Origin: an uncultured delta proteobacterium
GTDB lineage: Bacteria; Myxococcota; UBA727; VGSZ01
Assembly (NCBI GenBank): GCA_963775425.1
Contig: CAVZJB010000011.1
Coordinates: forward strand, 352,001-416,000
Direction: 5' to 3'
Length of the DNA: 64,000 bases
Of this stretch, positions 48,570 through 56,251 are shown piece by piece; within the stretch, counting starts at the first letter, position 1, and every line of letters begins with the position of its first letter. The position numbers were made by a program, and so were the translations under genes. Below the pieces are notes generated by a model. The model had not been told where the DNA came from. It was given only the letters and a program-made list of their open reading frames with translations, and made no database searches.

Positions 48570-49901
48570 TCAGCGAATGGTCACGGCGATCTCGTAGGGG
48601 AGGGCGCCCGTGAAGCCGGAGCTGCCCTTGGCCACGGCGACGAAGAACCGTCGCGCCGCCGTGCCGTTGTTCCTCAGGGACGCGTCGCGCGGCGACGAGC
48701 CGGTGCCGTCGACGAACGCGCACGCGCCGTAGGCCGACGCGCGGCTCGCCACTTCGCCGCTCGCGTCGAGGATGGCGATGCGCGTGTTGAACGCGTCGCA
48801 GTCGGTGGCGTCGCTCGTGGGGATGACCTCGACGCGCGCGCCGCGGCCGGGGGCGACGTCGAGGCCGTACACGTCGACGTCGTCGACGCTGTCGATGGAT
48901 CCCGACATGAACACGTCGCGTCCGTCGGCGGCCGCGAGCTCGGCGGTGGCGGTGGTGCCGTTGGGCTCCACCTCGCGCCCGCGATCCTCGAGGACGGCGA
49001 GCTGCTCGTGGAAGCCGGGGATACGGTCGGTGCGATCGAACTGGGTGACGGCGACCCAATAGGTGCCTGCCGGCAGGCTCTCGGTCATCACCGCGCAGCT
49101 CCCGATCCCGTTGAACGCCGCCTCCCGCAGGAGCGCGGCGTCGGGGTTGTTCGCGTTCACGCTGTCGCTGAACAGGCCGAAGAGGCTCGCGGGCGCGCCG
49201 GTGATGCAGTCGTCGGCGCCGCCGGCGTCGAACATCTCGATGCGCACGACGGACGGCCGGGCGAGCGCCAGCCAATAGGCGTCGTCCTCGGACCAGTCGG
49301 GGCCTCCGGTGGGATCGCGGCGCAGGTCGATGCTGCCCTTGAGGCTGAATTGGGTGTCCGACAGGTGCAGCGCGTTCGGGTCGGGGAAGTCGTTGAGGTT
49401 GCGCTCGTTGACGGCGCGGTCGAGGTGGCAGGTGGAGGAGCAGCCGTCGCCGCTCACGCGGTTTCCGTCGTCGCAGGCCTCGAGCGGATCGACCGCGCCG
49501 TTGCCGCAGAGGGACGGCAGCACGGGATCCACCGCCGGCTCGCCCTCGCCCTCTCCCTCGCCTTCTCCTTCTCCCTCTCCCTCTCCCTCTCCCTCTCCTT
49601 CACCTTCACCTTCGCCCTCGCCGACGAGGAAGCCGGTGGTGTCGTCGCCTTCGCCCTCGCCTTCGCCTTCGCCGCTGTCGCGCGGGATCAGCTGCTCGCC
49701 CTCGCCCTCGCCGGCGCCTGCGTCGTTCGCGCCGGGACGCGCGGGGGAGGCGGGGCGGCAGATGCCGGCGCCGTCGTCGCACACCTCGCTGCCCGGGCAG
49801 GCCTCGCCGTGCTGGCACGGGGTGATGCCGAGGAACACCTCGCACCCGCCGCTGAGGGCGGCGGCGGCGGCGACAAGGAGGGCGAGGGAGCTCGGGCGCA
49901 T
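48570..49901 (-). CDS. Lipoprotein with Cys motif, (GE)n linker, myxobacterial Cys-rich repeat (DUF4215-like) and PPC-like domains
   Basis: LSGGC lipobox; CGNGAVDPLEACDDGNRVSGDGCSSTC; EVEPNGT...DDVDVY. Confidence 0.82.
   Translation of the reverse strand: MRPSSLALLVAAAAALSGGCEVFLGITPCQHGEACPGSEVCDDGAGICRPASPARPGANDAGAGEGEGEQLIPRDSGEGEGEGEGDDTTGFLVGEGEGEGEGEGEGEGEGEGEGEGEGEGEPAVDPVLPSLCGNGAVDPLEACDDGNRVSGDGCSSTCHLDRAVNERNLNDFPDPNALHLSDTQFSLKGSIDLRRDPTGGPDWSEDDAYWLALARPSVVRIEMFDAGGADDCITGAPASLFGLFSDSVNANNPDAALLREAAFNGIGSCAVMTESLPAGTYWVAVTQFDRTDRIPGFHEQLAVLEDRGREVEPNGTTATAELAAADGRDVFMSGSIDSVDDVDVYGLDVAPGRGARVEVIPTSDATDCDAFNTRIAILDASGEVASRASAYGACAFVDGTGSSPRDASLRNNGTAARRFFVAVAKGSSGFTGALPYEIAVTIR
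49539..49714. repeat. Three interrupted (Gly-Glu)n coding arrays
   Basis: ctctcc/ctcgcc/ttcacc hexamers. Confidence 0.88.
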
Positions 49902-50152: not shown

Positions 50153-50635
50153 ATGTCGACGTGGTTCTTCGCCGTCGCGCTGGTCGTCGCCGTGGGAGGG
50201 GCGGCCGCGGTGGTGGCCTTCGAGAGCCCCACCCGCAGCGCCGCCGGCCTCATCACGCTGGTGGTCGGGGTGGCGGCGGCGGCGGGCGCCGCGGGCGCGC
50301 CGCTGGTGCCCGGCTTCGTCCTGTGGGTCGGCGGCGGCGGGATCGGGGTGCTCCTGCTCGGCGCGGTGCTGTTGTTGAACCTCGGCGAAGACGAGCGCGG
50401 GCGGCGGCGCTTCCGCCTGCGCGCGGGCCTCGCGCTGCCGCTGCTGGCCATCCTGTGGGCCGCGTTGGCGGCGCCGCTCGTGAGCGCGGTGCCGGACGCG
50501 GCGCCGGCGACGTTGACGTCGGGGCAGGTGGCGCAGGTCGTGTTGAACGACCTCGCGCTGCCGTTCACCGTGGGGCTCGTCGCGCTCGCAGTGGCGCTCG
50601 TCGTCGCCGTAGCCCTCGTCAGGCGGCGCACATGA
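50153..50635 (+). CDS. nuoJ: NADH-quinone oxidoreductase subunit J-like (divergent)
   Basis: SPTRSA, GGGIGVLLLGAVLLLNL, LPF; first of a J-K-L-M-N series. Confidence 0.7.
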   Translation: MSTWFFAVALVVAVGGAAAVVAFESPTRSAAGLITLVVGVAAAAGAAGAPLVPGFVLWVGGGGIGVLLLGAVLLLNLGEDERGRRRFRLRAGLALPLLAILWAALAAPLVSAVPDAAPATLTSGQVAQVVLNDLALPFTVGLVALAVALVVAVALVRRRT

Positions 50636-50949
50636 CGCCGCTCGAGCACATCCTCTTCACGGTCGGGGTCGGGGCGGGCGTCGCGCTCGTCGTCATCGGC
50701 TTCGGCGGGATCCTGCTGCGCCGCTCGGTGCTCGTCGTCGTGATGAGCGGCGCGGTGTCGATGCTCGGCGCGGCGCTGACGCTGGTGCTGCTCTCGGCGT
50801 CGCGCGGCGATGCCCGGGGCGTCGCCGTGTCGATGTTCATCGTCCTGCTCGCGGCGGTCTGGTCGCTGGCCGGCGCGGCGGTCGCGCTCGCCACGTATCG
50901 CCGCCGCGGCACCGAGAACCTCGACGAGCTCCGGGAGCTCCGAGGATGA
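50632..50949 (+). CDS. nuoK: NuoK-like (divergent)
   Basis: 105 aa, 3 TM helices, GILLRRS, YRRRGTENLDELRELRG. Confidence 0.8.
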   Translation: MTPLEHILFTVGVGAGVALVVIGFGGILLRRSVLVVVMSGAVSMLGAALTLVLLSASRGDARGVAVSMFIVLLAAVWSLAGAAVALATYRRRGTENLDELRELRG

Positions 50950-51011
50950 CGCGCGCTACGACGACGTGCCCGCGCGCGACGACGACGGCGCCGGCGACGA
51001 GGGCGACGTGA
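50946..51011 (+). CDS. 21-aa mini-ORF bridging nuoK and nuoL
   Basis: ATG overlaps nuoK TGA; its TGA overlaps nuoL GTG; MTRATTTCPRATTTAPATRAT. Confidence 0.35.
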   Translation: MTRATTTCPRATTTAPATRAT

Positions 51012-53017
51012 TCGGCTTTCACGACGACCGGCTCGCGCTCGTGTTCTACGCGCCGTTGCTCGCGGCGCTCGTGGTGTTCGCGTTCGCGCGGGCGCCGTGG
51101 CTGTGGGCGCGCATCGTCGTCGCGTTCGCCGGCCAGGCCGTCGCGCTCATCGTCGCGCTGGCGTCGGCGCAGAAGATCCTCGTGCGCGGGGGCTTCGCCC
51201 TCGTCGACATCGACGGCTGGTCCGGCGCGCGCATCGACGGCGTGGACCCGCTCGGCCTCGTGCCCGCCATGCTCACGCCCGGCACCGCCCCGCTGCTCGT
51301 CGGCGTCGCGGTCGCCGGCCTGCTCGCGTTCTGGTTGCTCGTGCCCGCGGCGCTCGAGGCGCGCTCCTCGGCCCCCCTCGCCGCGGTGCTCTCGGCCACG
51401 GCGTTCACGGCGATGCTCGTGGTCGCGCGCCGCATCGAAGGCGTGTGCGCCGCGTTCGCCCTCGCGGGCCTCGCGGGCTTCGCGCTCCTGGTCTCCTTCC
51501 GCCCGGCGCGCACCGACGTCGAGGGCGCGCTCCGCGCGTTCCTCCTGCAGCGCGCCGGCGACGCGCTCCTCCTCGGCGCCGTCTTCATCGTCGGGGCCGG
51601 CGCCGGCGGGCTCGACCTCGAGAAGCTCCCCGAGAGCGCGCCCCTCATCGACCCGTGGACGCGCGCGGCCAGCGGCCCGCTGCAGGGCTTCCCCGCGAGC
51701 GACATCTGGCTCCTCGTCGCCGGCCTCGTCGTCGCTGCGGCGGCGACGCGGCTCGCGTTCGGCCCGCTCCTGCCCCTCGTGCGCGACGCCGTCGGCGTCC
51801 CGGGCCCCGCCGTCGGCCTCGCCCACGGCGCCTGCTTCGTCGGCGCGGGCCTCATCCTGCTCGTGCGCACGACGCCCATCCTCTGGCTCGCGCCCGGCGC
51901 GCTCGCCGCCCTCGGCTGGATCGCGGCGGCGTCCACCGTCGTCGCCGGCCTCGTCGCGCTCGCCGGCCGGGACCTGGTGCGCATCGACGTGCACCTGCTG
52001 TGCGGCTTCGGCGCGCTGGCCGCGTTCGCGCTCGGCTGCGCCGACCTCGGCACCGCCGGGCTCGCGGTCACCGCGCTGCTCGTCGCAGCGGTGCCGCTCT
52101 GCGCCACCACGGGCGTCGTCGTCGACGCCACCGGCCGCGCCGACCCCCACGGGCTCGGCGGCCTCGAGAAGTCGTTGCCGCGCACGCACACCGCGCGCCT
52201 GCTCACCACCGGCGGGCTCTTCGGGGCGCTGCCGCTGTTCGCAGGCGGCGCGATCGTCGCGCAGTCTTTGGCGCGCGCGCTCTTTTCGCCGTGGCTCGGG
52301 CCGTGGGCCGGCGGGCTCGTCGTCGCCGGCGCCGCCGTCCTCGCGCTCGCGGCGTTCCGTCCGCTGCACCTGGTGTTCACCGGCTCCGGCGAACGCGAGC
52401 CGCTGTCGCGGACGGCCGTGGAGCCCCGCTTGCTGCGAACGCTGCCGCCGCTCCTCGTGGCGCTGCCGCTGCTCGGCGCAGGCTTCCTCCACATCCCCGA
52501 CGGCGTGCTCGCGATGCTGCCCGTGCGCGTCAGCTACATCTCGCCGGCGGGGTCCCTGTGGCTGCCCGAGCGGGCCGTGCTCCACCCGCTGCGCGAGCAC
52601 GTCCTCGCCGCGTGGCGGCCGCCGCACACGGGGCCCGTCACCGTCGCGCTCGTCGCCTTCGCCGCCTTGACCGCCGCGTGGCTCGTGTCGGTGGCGCTCT
52701 ACAAAAACGGCCCGCGCAAAGCCCACGGCAAGCTCTTCGGCGGCGCGCGCAGGCAGAGGGTCGTCGCCCTCCTCGCCAACCTCGCCGGCCGCGAGAGCCA
52801 GGTGGCCAAGGGGGTCGGCGAGAGCGCGGCGCGGCTGTCGCGCCTGATCGCCACCAACCTCGCCCCGGGCGTGCTCGACACGTTCCTGCGCCGCATCCCC
52901 GCGTTGCTCGGCGTGGTCGCCGGCGCCGTCGTCCGCTTCGTGGCCAACGGCAGCGCCCAGCGCGGCGTCGTCGTCGCGCTGCTCGTGCTCGCGGTGCTCC
53001 TGTGGGTGCTGCGATGA
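51008..53017 (+). CDS. nuoL: NuoL/MrpA-like antiporter subunit (divergent)
   Basis: RAFLLQRAGD, DAVGVPGPAVGLAHGACFVGAG, LGGLEKSLP, FRPLHLVFTG, ANGSAQR. Confidence 0.75.
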   Translation: MIGFHDDRLALVFYAPLLAALVVFAFARAPWLWARIVVAFAGQAVALIVALASAQKILVRGGFALVDIDGWSGARIDGVDPLGLVPAMLTPGTAPLLVGVAVAGLLAFWLLVPAALEARSSAPLAAVLSATAFTAMLVVARRIEGVCAAFALAGLAGFALLVSFRPARTDVEGALRAFLLQRAGDALLLGAVFIVGAGAGGLDLEKLPESAPLIDPWTRAASGPLQGFPASDIWLLVAGLVVAAAATRLAFGPLLPLVRDAVGVPGPAVGLAHGACFVGAGLILLVRTTPILWLAPGALAALGWIAAASTVVAGLVALAGRDLVRIDVHLLCGFGALAAFALGCADLGTAGLAVTALLVAAVPLCATTGVVVDATGRADPHGLGGLEKSLPRTHTARLLTTGGLFGALPLFAGGAIVAQSLARALFSPWLGPWAGGLVVAGAAVLALAAFRPLHLVFTGSGEREPLSRTAVEPRLLRTLPPLLVALPLLGAGFLHIPDGVLAMLPVRVSYISPAGSLWLPERAVLHPLREHVLAAWRPPHTGPVTVALVAFAALTAAWLVSVALYKNGPRKAHGKLFGGARRQRVVALLANLAGRESQVAKGVGESAARLSRLIATNLAPGVLDTFLRRIPALLGVVAGAVVRFVANGSAQRGVVVALLVLAVLLWVLR

Positions 53018-53166
53018 GCGGCGCCGCCCCCGGGTCCGCGACCCGCCCCGTCGACGCGCGCGCCGTGGCTCGCGCGGTATCTCCCGCCGTGCCTCCGGCC
53101 GTGTCTCCCGCCGTGCCTCCGGCCGTGTCTCCCGCCGTGCCTCCGGCCGGAGGGCCGCCCTCGTGA
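53014..53166 (+). CDS. 50-aa mini-ORF bridging nuoL and nuoM
   Basis: ATG overlaps nuoL TGA; its TGA overlaps nuoM GTG; contains (VSPAVPPA)x3. Confidence 0.35.
   Translation: MSGAAPGSATRPVDARAVARAVSPAVPPAVSPAVPPAVSPAVPPAGGPPS
53077..53148. repeat. 24-bp tandem repeat x3
   Basis: gt(a/g)tctcccgccgtgcctccggcc. Confidence 0.92.
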
Positions 53167-54785
53167 TCCCCGGCCTCCCCGATCCCTGGATGCTGCTCGT
53201 CGTCGCGGCGCTCCCCGTGGCGGGCGCGCTGTTCGCGCTCGTGATGCCCGGGGGCGACCGGCTCGCGCTGCGCTACGCGGGCATGGGCACGTCCGTCGCC
53301 GCGGGCATCGCGGGGCTGCGCGCCGCGTTCCTCGCCGTCAGCGCGCCCGTCGCCCTCGACGTCGGCGGCGTCCGCCTCTCTCTCGACGGCCTCTCCGCGC
53401 CGCTGTTGCTCTCGCTCGTGGTCGCCGCGCCCATCGCGCTGCGCTCGGGCGCGCCGCGCATCTTCGAGCGCACGCAGTTCTACGTCGTCACCGTGCTGTT
53501 CGCCGAGGGGCTCCTCGCCGCGGCCATCGTCGTCGACGCGCCGCTTTTGCGCCTCGCCGCGGCCAGCATCGCGGCGGTGCCGCTGTTCGCGCTCGTGGCG
53601 TTGTTCGGCGGGCCGCAGCGGGGGAGCACCACGCTGTCGGCGGCGATGATCTGGCTCTTCGTCGACATCGTGGCGCTCGCGGTGGTGGCGTGGCTGGCGG
53701 CGCGCGCCGGCGTCGACGCGTCGCGCGCGAGCGTCACCGACCTCGCCACGGCGGCGCGCGCGCTCCCGCACTGGCTGTCGCCCTGGATCTTCCTCGCGCT
53801 GGTGGCGCCGGGGCTCGTGCGGCTCGCGGCGGGGCCGTTCTCCGTGTGGCTCGCGTCGTTCCTCGACGAGGCGCCGGTGAGCGCGGCGGTGCTCGCGGCG
53901 TGCGGCGCGGCGCCGCTGGGCGTGCAGATCACGCTGCGCATCGCGGTGCCCACGTGTCCGCAGGGGCTGCTGGCGGTGCTCCCGTGGATCGCGGGCATCG
54001 GCGCGCTCTCGGTGGTGCTGTCGGGGATCATCGCGCTCGGCGAGCGCGACCTGCGACGCTTGCTCGCGCAGCTCCTGCAGGCGGCGGGGGCGACGTCGGC
54101 GGTGGCGCTCCTGAGCCTGGGCGACGACGCCGTCGCCGCGGGCGCGGTGCACGTCGTCGTCACCGGCGCCGCGGCCACGCTCGCGCTGACGTCGGTGGAG
54201 GCCGCCGAGCGGCGCTTCGAGACGCGTGACGTCGTCGAGCTCGCGGGGCTCGGCGGCGCGACGCAGCTCCTCGCCGCGTTCTTGATGCTCGGCCTCGTGA
54301 TGCTCGTGGGCCTGCCGGCCGTGGGCGCGGGGACGACGCTGTGGGCGGTGGCGTCGTCGGTGACGCGCGCGCCCGGGCTTTCGGCGTCGGGCGTGCAGCC
54401 GCTCTCGTCGGCGTGGCTGGCGGCGGCGCTCGCCGGCGGCACCGTGCTCGGCGCCGCGGGTGTCGCGGCCGCGGCCCGTCGCATCCTCGCCCCGCCGCCG
54501 CGCCGGTCGCGCCGCGCGCGTCCCCTCGAGCGGCTCACGGCGGGGCAGTCGGCGCGCCTCTTCGTCCCGGCGATCGTCGCCGTCGCAGCGGGCCTCGCCG
54601 CCGGCGTCCTCCTCGACGGCGCCCGTGGCAGCGCCGCCGCGCTCGCCGCCGAGGCGCGCGCGGGCGCCGGCGTCCACGTCGTCGACACCCCCCCGTTCGC
54701 GCCCCCCTCGAGCGCGCCCGCGGACGCGTCATCGGGATCGTCGTCGGACGCGTCGTCGGGATCGTCGCCGGGGGCCGCGCGATGA
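53163..54785 (+). CDS. nuoM: NuoM-like antiporter subunit (divergent)
   Basis: LSLDGLSAPL, LFGGPQR, PFSVWL...EAP, DLRRLLA, ERRFETRD...LAGL, VGLP. Confidence 0.75.
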   Translation: MIPGLPDPWMLLVVAALPVAGALFALVMPGGDRLALRYAGMGTSVAAGIAGLRAAFLAVSAPVALDVGGVRLSLDGLSAPLLLSLVVAAPIALRSGAPRIFERTQFYVVTVLFAEGLLAAAIVVDAPLLRLAAASIAAVPLFALVALFGGPQRGSTTLSAAMIWLFVDIVALAVVAWLAARAGVDASRASVTDLATAARALPHWLSPWIFLALVAPGLVRLAAGPFSVWLASFLDEAPVSAAVLAACGAAPLGVQITLRIAVPTCPQGLLAVLPWIAGIGALSVVLSGIIALGERDLRRLLAQLLQAAGATSAVALLSLGDDAVAAGAVHVVVTGAAATLALTSVEAAERRFETRDVVELAGLGGATQLLAAFLMLGLVMLVGLPAVGAGTTLWAVASSVTRAPGLSASGVQPLSSAWLAAALAGGTVLGAAGVAAAARRILAPPPRRSRRARPLERLTAGQSARLFVPAIVAVAAGLAAGVLLDGARGSAAALAAEARAGAGVHVVDTPPFAPPSSAPADASSGSSSDASSGSSPGAAR

Positions 54786-56251
54786 CGCCGACGACGCTCC
54801 AGGCGATCTTCGCGCCGGCGATGTGGCTCGGCGCCGCGCTCCTGTGCCTGCTGTTCGAGGCCGCGGGGACCCCCGTGGGGGCGCGCAAGCGCGGGGCGCG
54901 CACGCACCTCGCGTGGATCATCGGCCTCACCGGGGGCGTCATCGTCGTCCACGCGCTCACCAGCTGGGCCGCGGCGGCCACGCCCGCGTCGAGCGCCACC
55001 GGGCTCATTCACGACCGCGGCGGCCTCCTCGCCTCCGCGGGGATCGCGCTCCTCGTGATCGCCGCGCACACCGCGGCGGTCCCCGGTCTGCGCGGGATGG
55101 GCGAGGAGCGCGGCGAGATGAGCGCCGCCTTCGCCGCCGTCGGCGCCGGCTTCAGCCTCGTGGTCATCTCCGCAAACCTCCTGTCCTTCGCAGCCGGGCT
55201 CGTCCTCGTCGTCGCCGCCGTCTCTTTGGTGGCCGCGCCCGATCGCGACGGTCCCCACGGGATCGAGGCGGCCACCAAGGCCGTCGTCGGCGCCGGCCTC
55301 ACCTTCGCGCTCTTGTCGCTCGCGCTCGTCTTCGTCTTCACCGCCGCCGGCGACGCGAGCCCCGCGGGCCTCGGCCGCGCCTTGCAGACCGACGCGTCGC
55401 TCGCGCTGCCCGCCGTGGTCCTCGTCGTCGTCGTGTTCGCCCTCATGCTCGGCACGGTGCCGCTGCACCAGAAGTTCGTCGACGTCGCCCACGGCGCCTC
55501 CGCGGCGTCCTCCGGCCTCCTCGCCGGCGGCGCGCTCCTCGCCGGCGGCTGCGCCGCGCTCCGCTTCGTCGACGGCATCGCGCTCGCGGGCCCGCGCCCC
55601 GAGCTCGCCCAGGGCTTCGCCGTCCTCGCCGCGCTCACGCTCATCGGCGCGCCCATCGCGTCCCTCGACCAGACGCGCATCGCCCGCGTGGTCGCCTACG
55701 TCGTCGTCGTGCCCGGCGGCCTCGTGCTCGCGGCGGCGGCGGCGCAGACGGCGGACCCGTCGGGCGCGGTGGCGGCGTGGCGCGCGGGGACCGCCGCCGC
55801 GCTCACGGGCGCGCTCGGCGCCTCGGCCGCGCTCCTCGGGATCCTCGTGCCGCAGCTCGACCCCTCGTCGACGTGGGAGGACTGGGCGGGCTTCGGCCGT
55901 CGCCGCCCGGTGATGGCCGCGCTCCTCGTCTACGCCGTGGCCACCGCCGCCGGCGTCCCCGGCACCGCGGGCTTCGTCGCCCGCCTCGAGGTCGCCCGCG
56001 CGTGCGTCGACGCCCACCTCGACGCCCTCGCGCTCATCGCGGTGGCGAGCGCCGCCATCGGCGCCGCGCCCCTCGTGCGCCTCGCGCTCTTCCTGTTCGC
56101 CAAGCACCAGCCGCCGGCGAAGAAGAAGGAGCCGCCGCGCATCCGCCGGCCGCTCTTGATGGTGTCGTTCACGCTGCTGGTGGTGCTCGCCGCGGTGATC
56201 GCCATCGCGCCTTGGCTGCTCGACGGCGTGCTCGAGGCCGCGCGCCGCTGA
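54782..56251 (+). CDS. nuoN: NuoN-like antiporter subunit (divergent)
   Basis: RGE, EAATK, VPLH...DVAHGA, AGFGRRRP, AGVPGTAGF. Confidence 0.78.
   Translation: MTPTTLQAIFAPAMWLGAALLCLLFEAAGTPVGARKRGARTHLAWIIGLTGGVIVVHALTSWAAAATPASSATGLIHDRGGLLASAGIALLVIAAHTAAVPGLRGMGEERGEMSAAFAAVGAGFSLVVISANLLSFAAGLVLVVAAVSLVAAPDRDGPHGIEAATKAVVGAGLTFALLSLALVFVFTAAGDASPAGLGRALQTDASLALPAVVLVVVVFALMLGTVPLHQKFVDVAHGASAASSGLLAGGALLAGGCAALRFVDGIALAGPRPELAQGFAVLAALTLIGAPIASLDQTRIARVVAYVVVVPGGLVLAAAAAQTADPSGAVAAWRAGTAAALTGALGASAALLGILVPQLDPSSTWEDWAGFGRRRPVMAALLVYAVATAAGVPGTAGFVARLEVARACVDAHLDALALIAVASAAIGAAPLVRLALFLFAKHQPPAKKKEPPRIRRPLLMVSFTLLVVLAAVIAIAPWLLDGVLEAARR

Follow-up and report, generated by a model that had tools for sequence, protein, structure and literature searches.

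A divergent nuoJKLMN-like gene cluster without the proton-relay residues of complex I in an uncultured delta proteobacterium

Relatives of the proton-translocating subunits of respiratory complex I have been put to several uses in bacteria. Mrp antiporters (cation:proton antiporter family 3, CPA3) are redox-free assemblies of NuoL/M/N-like and NuoK-like proteins that share a lysine/glutamate network with complex I, and the cyanobacterial NdhF3/D3 proteins with CupA, as well as DabB with DabA, are NuoL/M-like proteins given another task; they retain the residues of the proton pathway, and a carbonic-anhydrase-like protein accompanies them. The Ehr- and Mbx-type complexes, relatives of the group 4 [NiFe] hydrogenases within the complex I superfamily, no longer carry catalytic ligands in their large subunit, their function being unsettled, and the Ehr complexes are taken to be redox enzymes still, coupled to Mrp-like pumps (PMC6349859). 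Here we describe five adjoining genes on a 64,000-nucleotide stretch of DNA (the window, G000:C11:352001-416000) from an uncultured delta proteobacterium, whose products are very divergent homologues of the complex I membrane-arm subunits NuoJ, NuoK, NuoL, NuoM and NuoN, encoded in canonical order and stripped of the glutamates and lysines of the proton relay. The genome, G000, is an 8.26-Mb draft of about 73% G+C; coordinates without a contig prefix are window positions, L0xx denotes extracted loci, and f1, f3, f4 and f6 are families and g4 and g12 genera. The term 'nuoJKLMN' is apparently used in the literature for ordinary nuo operons, and full-text searches outside the subscription journals, together with PMC6349859 and 10.1101/2025.03.13.643058, turned up neither an orphan nuoJKLMN cluster nor a residue-stripped complex I.

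Set beside these systems, the cluster resembles the membrane arm of complex I in its Pfam families, gene order and subunit sizes, and NuoL is the best structural match of its L product, whereas it differs in the missing K glutamates and L, M and N relay residues, in family scores far below the NCBIfam cut-offs, and in that its likely Q-module partners, encoded at two other loci, lack the cysteines of cluster N2 (one genome, G018, excepted) and the sites that we take to be quinone ligands. The likeness to Mrp, which lies in a redox-free assembly of NuoL/M/N-like and NuoK-like proteins and makes a J-K-L-M-N cluster superficially similar, is offset by the presence of five genes only, without MrpB, MrpE, MrpF or MrpG or anything matching the C-terminal part of MrpA, and by the absence of the lysine/glutamate network; because these Mrp-specific subunits are missing and Mrp models score below Nuo models for every subunit, the cluster is not an Mrp system. 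With the Ehr and Mbx complexes it has in common lost catalytic ligands and an unsettled function; here, however, the small subunit is without its cluster cysteines as well (in f1, f3 and f4), the pump residues are gone, the genes are divided among three loci, and the D-like subunit resembles NuoD more than it does HycE or Mbh. No DabA- or CupA-like partner is found among the flanking genes scanned, no search having been aimed at those families. The cluster works like no described member of the superfamily, being homologous to complex I and devoid of the residues on which its function depends.

Family, fold and relay residues of the five products

The cluster comprises the following features:

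50153..50635, plus strand, nuoJ-like gene, 160 amino acids; PF00499 at 41.1 bits
50632..50949, plus strand, nuoK-like gene, 105 amino acids; PF00420 at 53.8 bits; its start overlaps the stop of the nuoJ-like gene by 4 nt
51008..53017, plus strand, nuoL-like gene, 669 amino acids from the GTG at 51008; PF00361 at 34.1 bits
53061..53149, no strand, 24-nt tandem repeat, 3.7 copies with 92% matches; Tandem Repeats Finder score 143
53163..54785, plus strand, nuoM-like gene, 540 amino acids; PF00361 at 41.3 bits
54782..56251, plus strand, nuoN-like gene, 489 amino acids; PF00361 at 74.7 bits; its start overlaps the stop of the nuoM-like gene by 4 nt

All five genes are free of stops and partly overlapping, and their order is kept in 10 related loci and in G018. 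A public gene call starts the nuoL-like gene at an alternative GTG, at 50966, which gives 683 amino acids. The 145-nt gap between the L and M genes, most of which is taken up by the tandem repeat, is peculiar to the window, since in relatives the two genes abut or overlap.

Every product passes the Pfam gathering score of its family (33.2 for J, 26.1 for K and 21.5 for L, M and N), and the best NCBIfam models are NuoJ, K, L, M and N in gene order, although all scores fall far below the curated cut-offs: 24 bits versus 154 for J (NuoJ), 43 versus 101 for K (with a second model at 42.8 versus 57), 82.5 versus 556 for L (NuoL), 84.8 versus 263.8 for M (NDH_I_M) and 113.3 versus 332.6 for N (NDH_I_N). 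The Pfam domains and the J-K-L-M-N order of a complex I membrane arm are thus in place while the NCBIfam thresholds are not reached, which marks the five products as membrane-arm homologues very distant from ordinary members.

Residues were called from MAFFT alignments of each product to its orthologues and to the genome's own canonical copies, and from phmmer alignments against solved chains. In K, the glutamate of the second transmembrane helix (TM2) is replaced by alanine and that of TM3 by tryptophan, relative both to the genome's own canonical NuoK and to Paracoccus NuoK (8qby_K). In L, with E. coli numbers counted on the alignment with 3rko_L, E144 has become alanine and K229 arginine, K399 and D400 are lost, and the His-His-Lys stretch, presumably H334, H338 and K342, is hydrophobic in the window product. 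M carries serine at the TM5 glutamate, arginine at the TM7 lysine (9/9 sequences), proline at the TM8 lysine (9/9) and leucine at the TM12 glutamate, whereas in N, numbered on 3rko_N, E133 is valine, K395 is arginine and two further lysine sites, which we assume to be K217 and K247, read methionine and leucine. J retains neither the canonical TM3 tyrosine nor the glutamate preceding it. Apart from the substitutions by arginine and proline, the relay sites are occupied by hydrophobic residues (A, V, L, I, M, W or F), and the relay that defines complex I, namely the two glutamates of NuoK and the TM5 glutamate, TM7 lysine, TM8 lysine or histidine and TM12 lysine or glutamate of NuoL, M and N, is not found in these products. 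Several structural motifs of the canonical subunits persist, among them the GGL loop and, in K, the C-terminal tail.

These losses do not arise by chance but are general across orthologues, as judged from key alignment columns in 10 K, 11 L, 9 M and 9 N divergent sequences, in which the arginines at L TM7, M TM7 and N TM12 and the proline at M TM8 are invariant, the N TM12 arginine in 9/9 of the orthologue set and also in G018. The TM2 glutamate of K survives in a single sequence of ten (that of G017) and the TM3 glutamate in none of the ten (the window and nine others); the further exceptions are an aspartate at the M TM5 site of G017, the L TM8 histidine in 8 of 11, an acidic residue at the L TM12 aspartate site in 6 of 11, and an arginine at the N TM7 site of G013. 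In the L family, none of the 24 full-length representatives has the TM5 glutamate, the His-His-Lys stretch or the TM12 lysine, and all have arginine at TM7, while the next three matches beyond the family are canonical at all sites but one, two of them having glycine at the TM5 glutamate. In the canonical subunits of G000 itself the relay residues are all present, bar a leucine at the TM7 lysine site of the second NuoM on contig C16 and a threonine at the TM5 glutamate site of the NuoL on contig C13. A bias toward G+C as the cause of the lysine-to-arginine changes was considered and ruled out: G018, at 39% G+C, keeps the arginine at all three sites as well as the M TM8 proline, and the three arginines are therefore selected rather than a by-product of base composition. 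In M, moreover, 37 of the 72 conserved positions are specific to the family.

A preliminary description of the window, based on its letters and read by eye, had reported five full-length, stop-free genes in canonical order whose K, L, M and N products had lost the relay glutamates and lysines. Open reading frame (ORF) mapping, Pfam and NCBIfam return the same five genes at the same coordinates, and every substitution that it listed is upheld by the alignment with canonical subunits that it had proposed, in which no glutamate or lysine is restored; the only differences are slight ones in the window residue that is paired with a missing one.

Modelled with AlphaFold2 from the orthologue alignment, L reaches a predicted local distance difference test score (pLDDT) of 81 and a predicted template modelling score (pTM) of 0.84. 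The helices of the model break at 250-251 and 406-411, where TM7 and TM12 of NuoL are discontinuous, and its C-terminal part (594-669) is helical with a pLDDT below 50. A Foldseek search with the model places NuoL, ND5 and NdhF chains first, with an MrpA model at rank 42 and HycC at rank 46; the best match is E. coli NuoL (7p64_L; E 5e-21, TM-scores 0.71/0.78, about 20% identity). The core of the NuoL fold appears to be retained in L, the C-terminal helix and last transmembrane helix being modelled with low confidence.

Distribution and selection

The JKLMN family is small, old and under purifying selection. A phmmer search with L over 1.84 billion cluster representatives returned 934 matches at E<=0.001, 61 at E<=1e-10 and 16 at E<=1e-30, and 24 full-length representatives constitute the family; its closest neighbours in the ESM Atlas are NuoL/Mrp clusters of a generic kind and a 55-member cluster without a name. 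Thirteen of 41 relatives have a full-length L orthologue (9/10 in f1 plus the own genome, 2/2 in f3 and 1/1 in f4), and no other family of the phylum has one in a sample of 401 genomes, of which 17 matched at E<=1e-15, four of them with partial matches of 60-69 bits taken for canonical NuoL. The cluster as such extends to a fourth family, f6, where G018 (2 Mb, 39% G+C) carries J, K, a short L, M and N with the same derived residues, and G035 has adjacent M- and N-like ORFs. L is the subunit that shrinks: in G018 it has 419 amino acids (L053:7017-8276), the second half of the antiporter core being gone and a C-terminal stretch resembling the lateral helix and the last transmembrane helix being retained, and in L061 only about 600 nt (L061:8066-8688) lie between K and M. 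L061 is a K-M-N-like locus of 49% G+C in a metagenome-assembled genome labelled archaeal, for which mis-binning seems likelier than transfer.

Orthologues are full length across four families, those of J being 31-51% identical in six loci, and the 10 orthologous loci contain no stops or frameshifts, with neighbouring genes overlapping. Between G000 and G006 the amino-acid identity is 51-63% for the J-N-like products and 58-74% for canonical J-N. Within one genus, the ratio of nonsynonymous to synonymous substitution rates (dN/dS) by the method of Nei and Gojobori (NG86) is 0.11-0.47 for the divergent genes (15 comparisons) and 0.14-0.27 for the genuine nuo genes (6 comparisons), values whose synonymous component (dS) is compressed at about 95% G+C in third codon positions, so that the absolute ratios are inflated and unreliable and only the comparison with the canonical genes carries weight. 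For G004-G006 these ratios are.40,.27,.31,.24 and.23 in divergent J, K, L, M and N and.14,.27,.21,.22,.19 and.20 in canonical J, K, L, M, second M and N; for G002-G006 they are.22,.33 and.21 in the D-, C- and H-like genes described below. The method of Yang and Nielsen (YN00) gave values in 5 of 48 comparisons, three of divergent genes (0.069-0.086) and two of canonical genes (0.023-0.028). Since dN/dS resembles the values that genuine nuo genes show in these genomes, the cluster is not in decay. The view that the genes are retained and are not a decaying pseudogene, which the preliminary description had put forward together with the proposal to measure dN/dS among orthologues, is accordingly borne out, no neutral decay being seen.

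Divergent complex I genes at two other loci

A separate canonical nuo set, the presence of which had also been proposed for checking, does exist in the genome, on contig C16 with pieces on C12 and C13. The C16 locus has the order A-B-C-D-I-H-J-K-L-M-M-N with two NuoM (L013:9949-17709, L014:1706-6455), its A and B having been placed by genome-wide Pfam matches, and contains no NuoE, NuoF or NuoG; C12 carries copies of NuoG and NuoH at 114-118 kb and of A, B and D at 161-165 kb. On C13, a separate J-K-L-N cluster without NuoM (L015:7237-11346) lies beside a family-A DNA polymerase gene, its relay residues canonical bar the NuoL threonine. The nine PF00361 matches in G000 divide into four on C16, two on C13 and three on C11.

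Weak matches to NuoH, NuoD and NuoB led to two more divergent loci. On C6 (locus L033, minus strand) seven genes abut or overlap, and on C16 (locus L028:4473-9935) a LolA-like gene and two M16 (insulinase-type) peptidase genes are followed by an H-like gene that starts 10 nt after the second peptidase gene:

C6 L033, minus strand, A-like gene; no Pfam match, aligns with NuoA with two motifs kept and two acidic residues of TM2 missing
C6 L033, minus strand, B-like gene; PF01058 at 21 bits, below the cut-off of 27
C6 L033, minus strand, C-like gene; PF00329 at 112 bits
C6 L033, minus strand, D-like gene; PF00346 at 113 bits
C6 L033, minus strand, MscS-like gene; MS_channel_2nd at 27 bits
C6 L033, minus strand, gene for a 404-amino-acid membrane protein; no family named
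C6 L033, minus strand, Na+/H+-exchanger-family gene; Na_H_Exchanger at 73 bits
C16 L028, H-like gene; PF00146 at 101 bits versus 397 for the canonical copy

In G013, G006 and G002, ORFs of similar size follow the order of L028, the Pfam scan having been confined to G000 genes. The stripping of functional residues recurs in these products. With the canonical NuoB copies as reference, none of the four N2 cysteines is present in any of eight B-like proteins of f1, f3 and f4. In the D-like proteins the second histidine of the N-terminal His-rich motif and the tyrosine of the Asp-Tyr motif, which we take to correspond to the residues that bind the quinone head group (His38 and Tyr87 in Nqo4 of T. 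thermophilus), are replaced in 10/10, mostly by proline. The D-like protein remains nearest to NuoD (131 bits) rather than to HycE (85) or Mbh (68). The H-like protein has leucine facing E157 (E. coli number), and most acidic residues of its TM5-6 loop are changed; both the H-like and the A-like proteins lack acidic residues of the E-channel. What would identify a whole complex I, the N2 cysteines of NuoB together with the quinone-site histidine and tyrosine of NuoD, is accordingly missing, the B-like cysteines of G018 excepted, and the three divergent loci contain no NuoE, F, G or I partner, no genome-wide search having been made for divergent I, E or F. The D-like proteins of f1, f3 and f4 are longer at the N-terminus by some 60 residues, a stretch (L033:9540-9723) in which a motif rich in proline and aspartate is conserved; it does not occur in canonical NuoD and is largely missing in G018.

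The distribution of these genes follows that of the JKLMN cluster. A full-length D-like gene occurs in 10/10 genomes of f1, 2/2 of f3, 1/1 of f4 and 2/2 of genus g12 of f6 (41 genomes), with no comparable match outside f1, f3, f4 and g12 among the 401 genomes of the phylum, and its phyletic range is the same as that of JKLMN. The A-B-C-D order is kept in G006, G017, G013, G012 and G001, and B-C-D in G005 and G003, G018 having B-C-D plus a weak A-like match; the D-like gene is succeeded by an MscS-like gene in G002, G006 and G013, and an exchanger gene follows in G013. The last of these genomes (96% complete, 30 contigs) yields divergent matches only, with PF00146, PF00361, the canonical NuoL query and the D-like query alike.

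These findings bear on two claims of the preliminary description, which had called the cluster an orphan and had read it as a repurposed membrane arm. It is an orphan at its own locus, where no other complex I gene adjoins, and it is not one in the genome, given the divergent A-B-C-D-like genes on C6 and the H-like gene on C16; likewise, the retention of the arm and the true loss of its relay residues stand, whereas a stand-alone arm is the less likely reading, as the D-like gene shares its phyletic range. The divergent A-D- and H-like genes and this shared range make the cluster likelier to be one arm of a dispersed paralogue of the whole complex, and we regard it as probable that the J-N genes encode the membrane part of a third paralogue of complex I, the remaining core subunits of which are encoded at two other loci. 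Ten subunits (A, B, C, D, H, J, K, L, M and N) would then form a complex I look-alike. Electron transfer would be impossible in most lineages because there are no N2 ligands, the residues taken for quinone ligands are gone and no I, E, F or G gene lies alongside, and the glutamate/lysine lateral pathway for protons could not run. We propose tentatively, and with a little less than even confidence, that such an assembly, though built like complex I, transfers no electrons and moves no protons by the canonical lateral pathway, and that it serves instead as a platform in the membrane without catalysis or as a conformational regulator, possibly of the channel and the exchanger encoded with the ABCD-like genes; the presumed co-transcription of the channel and exchanger genes with the latter suggests a link to ion or envelope homeostasis. 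Taken as a whole, the chain of argument down to its non-catalytic end seems to us evenly balanced. A bolder version, in which the ten-subunit look-alike, free of redox sites and proton relay, reuses the long-range conformational frame of complex I for signal transmission or sensing that gates the MscS-like channel and the exchangers, or for moving a new substrate past the three buried arginines, we consider unlikely.

Several observations weigh against the reading as a non-catalytic paralogue of complex I. The B-like protein of G018 keeps all four N2 cysteines, so that the loss of the cluster is not family-wide and an ancestral redox role is possible. In none of 13 loci, with flanks of up to 10 kb, do A-, B-, C-, D-, H-, MscS- or exchanger-like genes adjoin J-N, and the assembly consequently rests on co-occurrence among related, non-independent genomes and on one weak prediction. 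In the latter, a complex of J, K, A-like and H-like proteins with H-like as the partner scored 0.48 versus 0.01 for the best of three controls, which counts as 'weak support': the pass mark was reached by 116/157 solved complexes and 2/215 mismatched pairs, and passes at <=0.60 comprised 18/157 solved complexes and both mismatches that passed. The runs, with our own alignments as input, agreed in at least 84% of contacts with a partner pLDDT of at least 64; as complex I is already solved, however, the pass may reflect likeness only. The H-like gene is found in none of five g4 genomes (88-96% complete), which do have K-L-M-N-like genes (with no J-like match) and B-C-D-like genes, and H-like is therefore not a constant partner. 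The invariant arginines and the family-specific conserved residues would also fit a working non-canonical transporter, and the compression of dS noted above tempers the measure of selection.

This transporter or channel, in which ions or a solute would be moved by other chemistry on the three buried arginines, with an Mrp-like logic and another substrate such as an anion, is an explanation that we judge possible though rather unlikely. The invariance of the arginines at L TM7, M TM7 and N TM12 even at 39% G+C and of the M TM8 proline, the TM7 and TM12 breaks kept in the L model and the many family-specific conserved positions speak for it, as do the MscS-like and Na+/H+-exchanger-family genes of the ABCD-like operon, which point to ion handling; the other relay sites are nonetheless hydrophobic, which removes the hydrated lateral axis, arginine is not, as general chemistry has it, a proton shuttle at physiological pH, and the shrinkage of L, which lacks half of the antiporter core in G018 and is seemingly smaller in L061, is hard to square with a working channel and is the reason why the platform is favoured over a transporter. 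A J-K-L-M-N module acting by itself, with the A-D-like and H-like genes belonging to something else, appears improbable: that the cluster stands on its own in 13/13 loci without another complex I gene within 10 kb, that H-like is not found in g4 and that the complex prediction reached no more than 'weak support' would be expected of it, whereas the narrow range shared by JKLMN and the D-like gene among the 401 genomes and the same kind of residue stripping in both gene sets would not, and J and K, in established complex I structures, are not known to form a stable unit without A and H.

Two further explanations are contradicted by the data. An alternative, non-pumping membrane arm that joins the canonical peripheral arm in place of the usual one, yielding an uncoupled NADH:quinone oxidoreductase, could draw that peripheral arm from the canonical nuo genes of the genome, yet the divergent set has A-, B-, C-, D- and H-like genes of its own and G013 keeps it with no canonical NuoH, L, M, N or D found by the four queries, which makes the swap highly improbable. 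The very low family scores and the loss of every functional residue might equally have suggested decaying relics of a duplicated nuo operon, a possibility that we hardly entertain in view of intact frames in 10 loci with overlapping start and stop codons, dN/dS values like those of genuine nuo genes, and the same derived residues fixed across four families and in 24/24 representatives.

The cluster touches on the open argument as to whether the buried glutamate/lysine chain of complex I is a proton wire only or also a coupling element, since here that chain has been naturally removed from every subunit, in most lineages together with the N2 and quinone ligands, while the proteins, their order, the helix breaks and the three arginines have long been kept by selection. 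If the parts assemble, they show the complex I scaffold without its chemistry and offer a structural control for studies of mechanism; the look-alike would amount to a complex I mutated by nature at all sites and to the first respiratory complex in 'pseudo-enzyme' form, and a respiratory complex would join the short list of bacterial multisubunit pseudo-enzymes. Current annotation as 'NADH:ubiquinone oxidoreductase subunit' or 'proton-conducting transporter' would wrongly credit these uncultured Myxococcota with extra proton-pumping capacity and would, in genomes such as G013, credit a complex I not found by the searches used.

Flanking genes and further observations

The flanks of the cluster, part of whose genes were scanned with Pfam, are of a housekeeping character. 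Upstream lie an rpsP-KH-rimM-trmD-like run, named from N-terminal sequences and synteny alone, an RNA methyltransferase gene and three genes whose products are envelope or secreted proteins; on the downstream side, a response regulator gene on the other strand is followed by rpoZ-, ksgA- and mutM-like genes. No nuoA-I or hydrogenase gene is found in these flanks, in agreement with what the preliminary description had stated of the adjoining genes. Between 49700 and 56800 a scan returned no promoter-like site and three terminator-like sites versus 1.6 expected, none of them at the end of the operon, both results being uninformative at such G+C content.

On the same contig, about 30 kb before the window, a likely soluble [NiFe] hydrogenase cluster (C11, L034:6347-11694) comprises small and large subunit, protease and HypA-like genes, as judged from gene order and N-terminal sequences, without a Pfam scan, and accounts for the extra PF01058 match on C11. 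These group 3-like genes were considered as a partner of the five-gene cluster and rejected, as they look like those of a soluble hydrogenase with its maturation genes.

Immediately upstream and divergent, the minus-strand gene at 48570-49901 encodes a 443-amino-acid secreted protein with long Gly-Glu repeats and a DUF4215 cysteine-rich repeat, the Gly-Glu stretch being underlain by 6-nt DNA repeats at 49539-49622; Gly-Glu repeat proteins recur elsewhere in G000, for example at L015:11377-13800.

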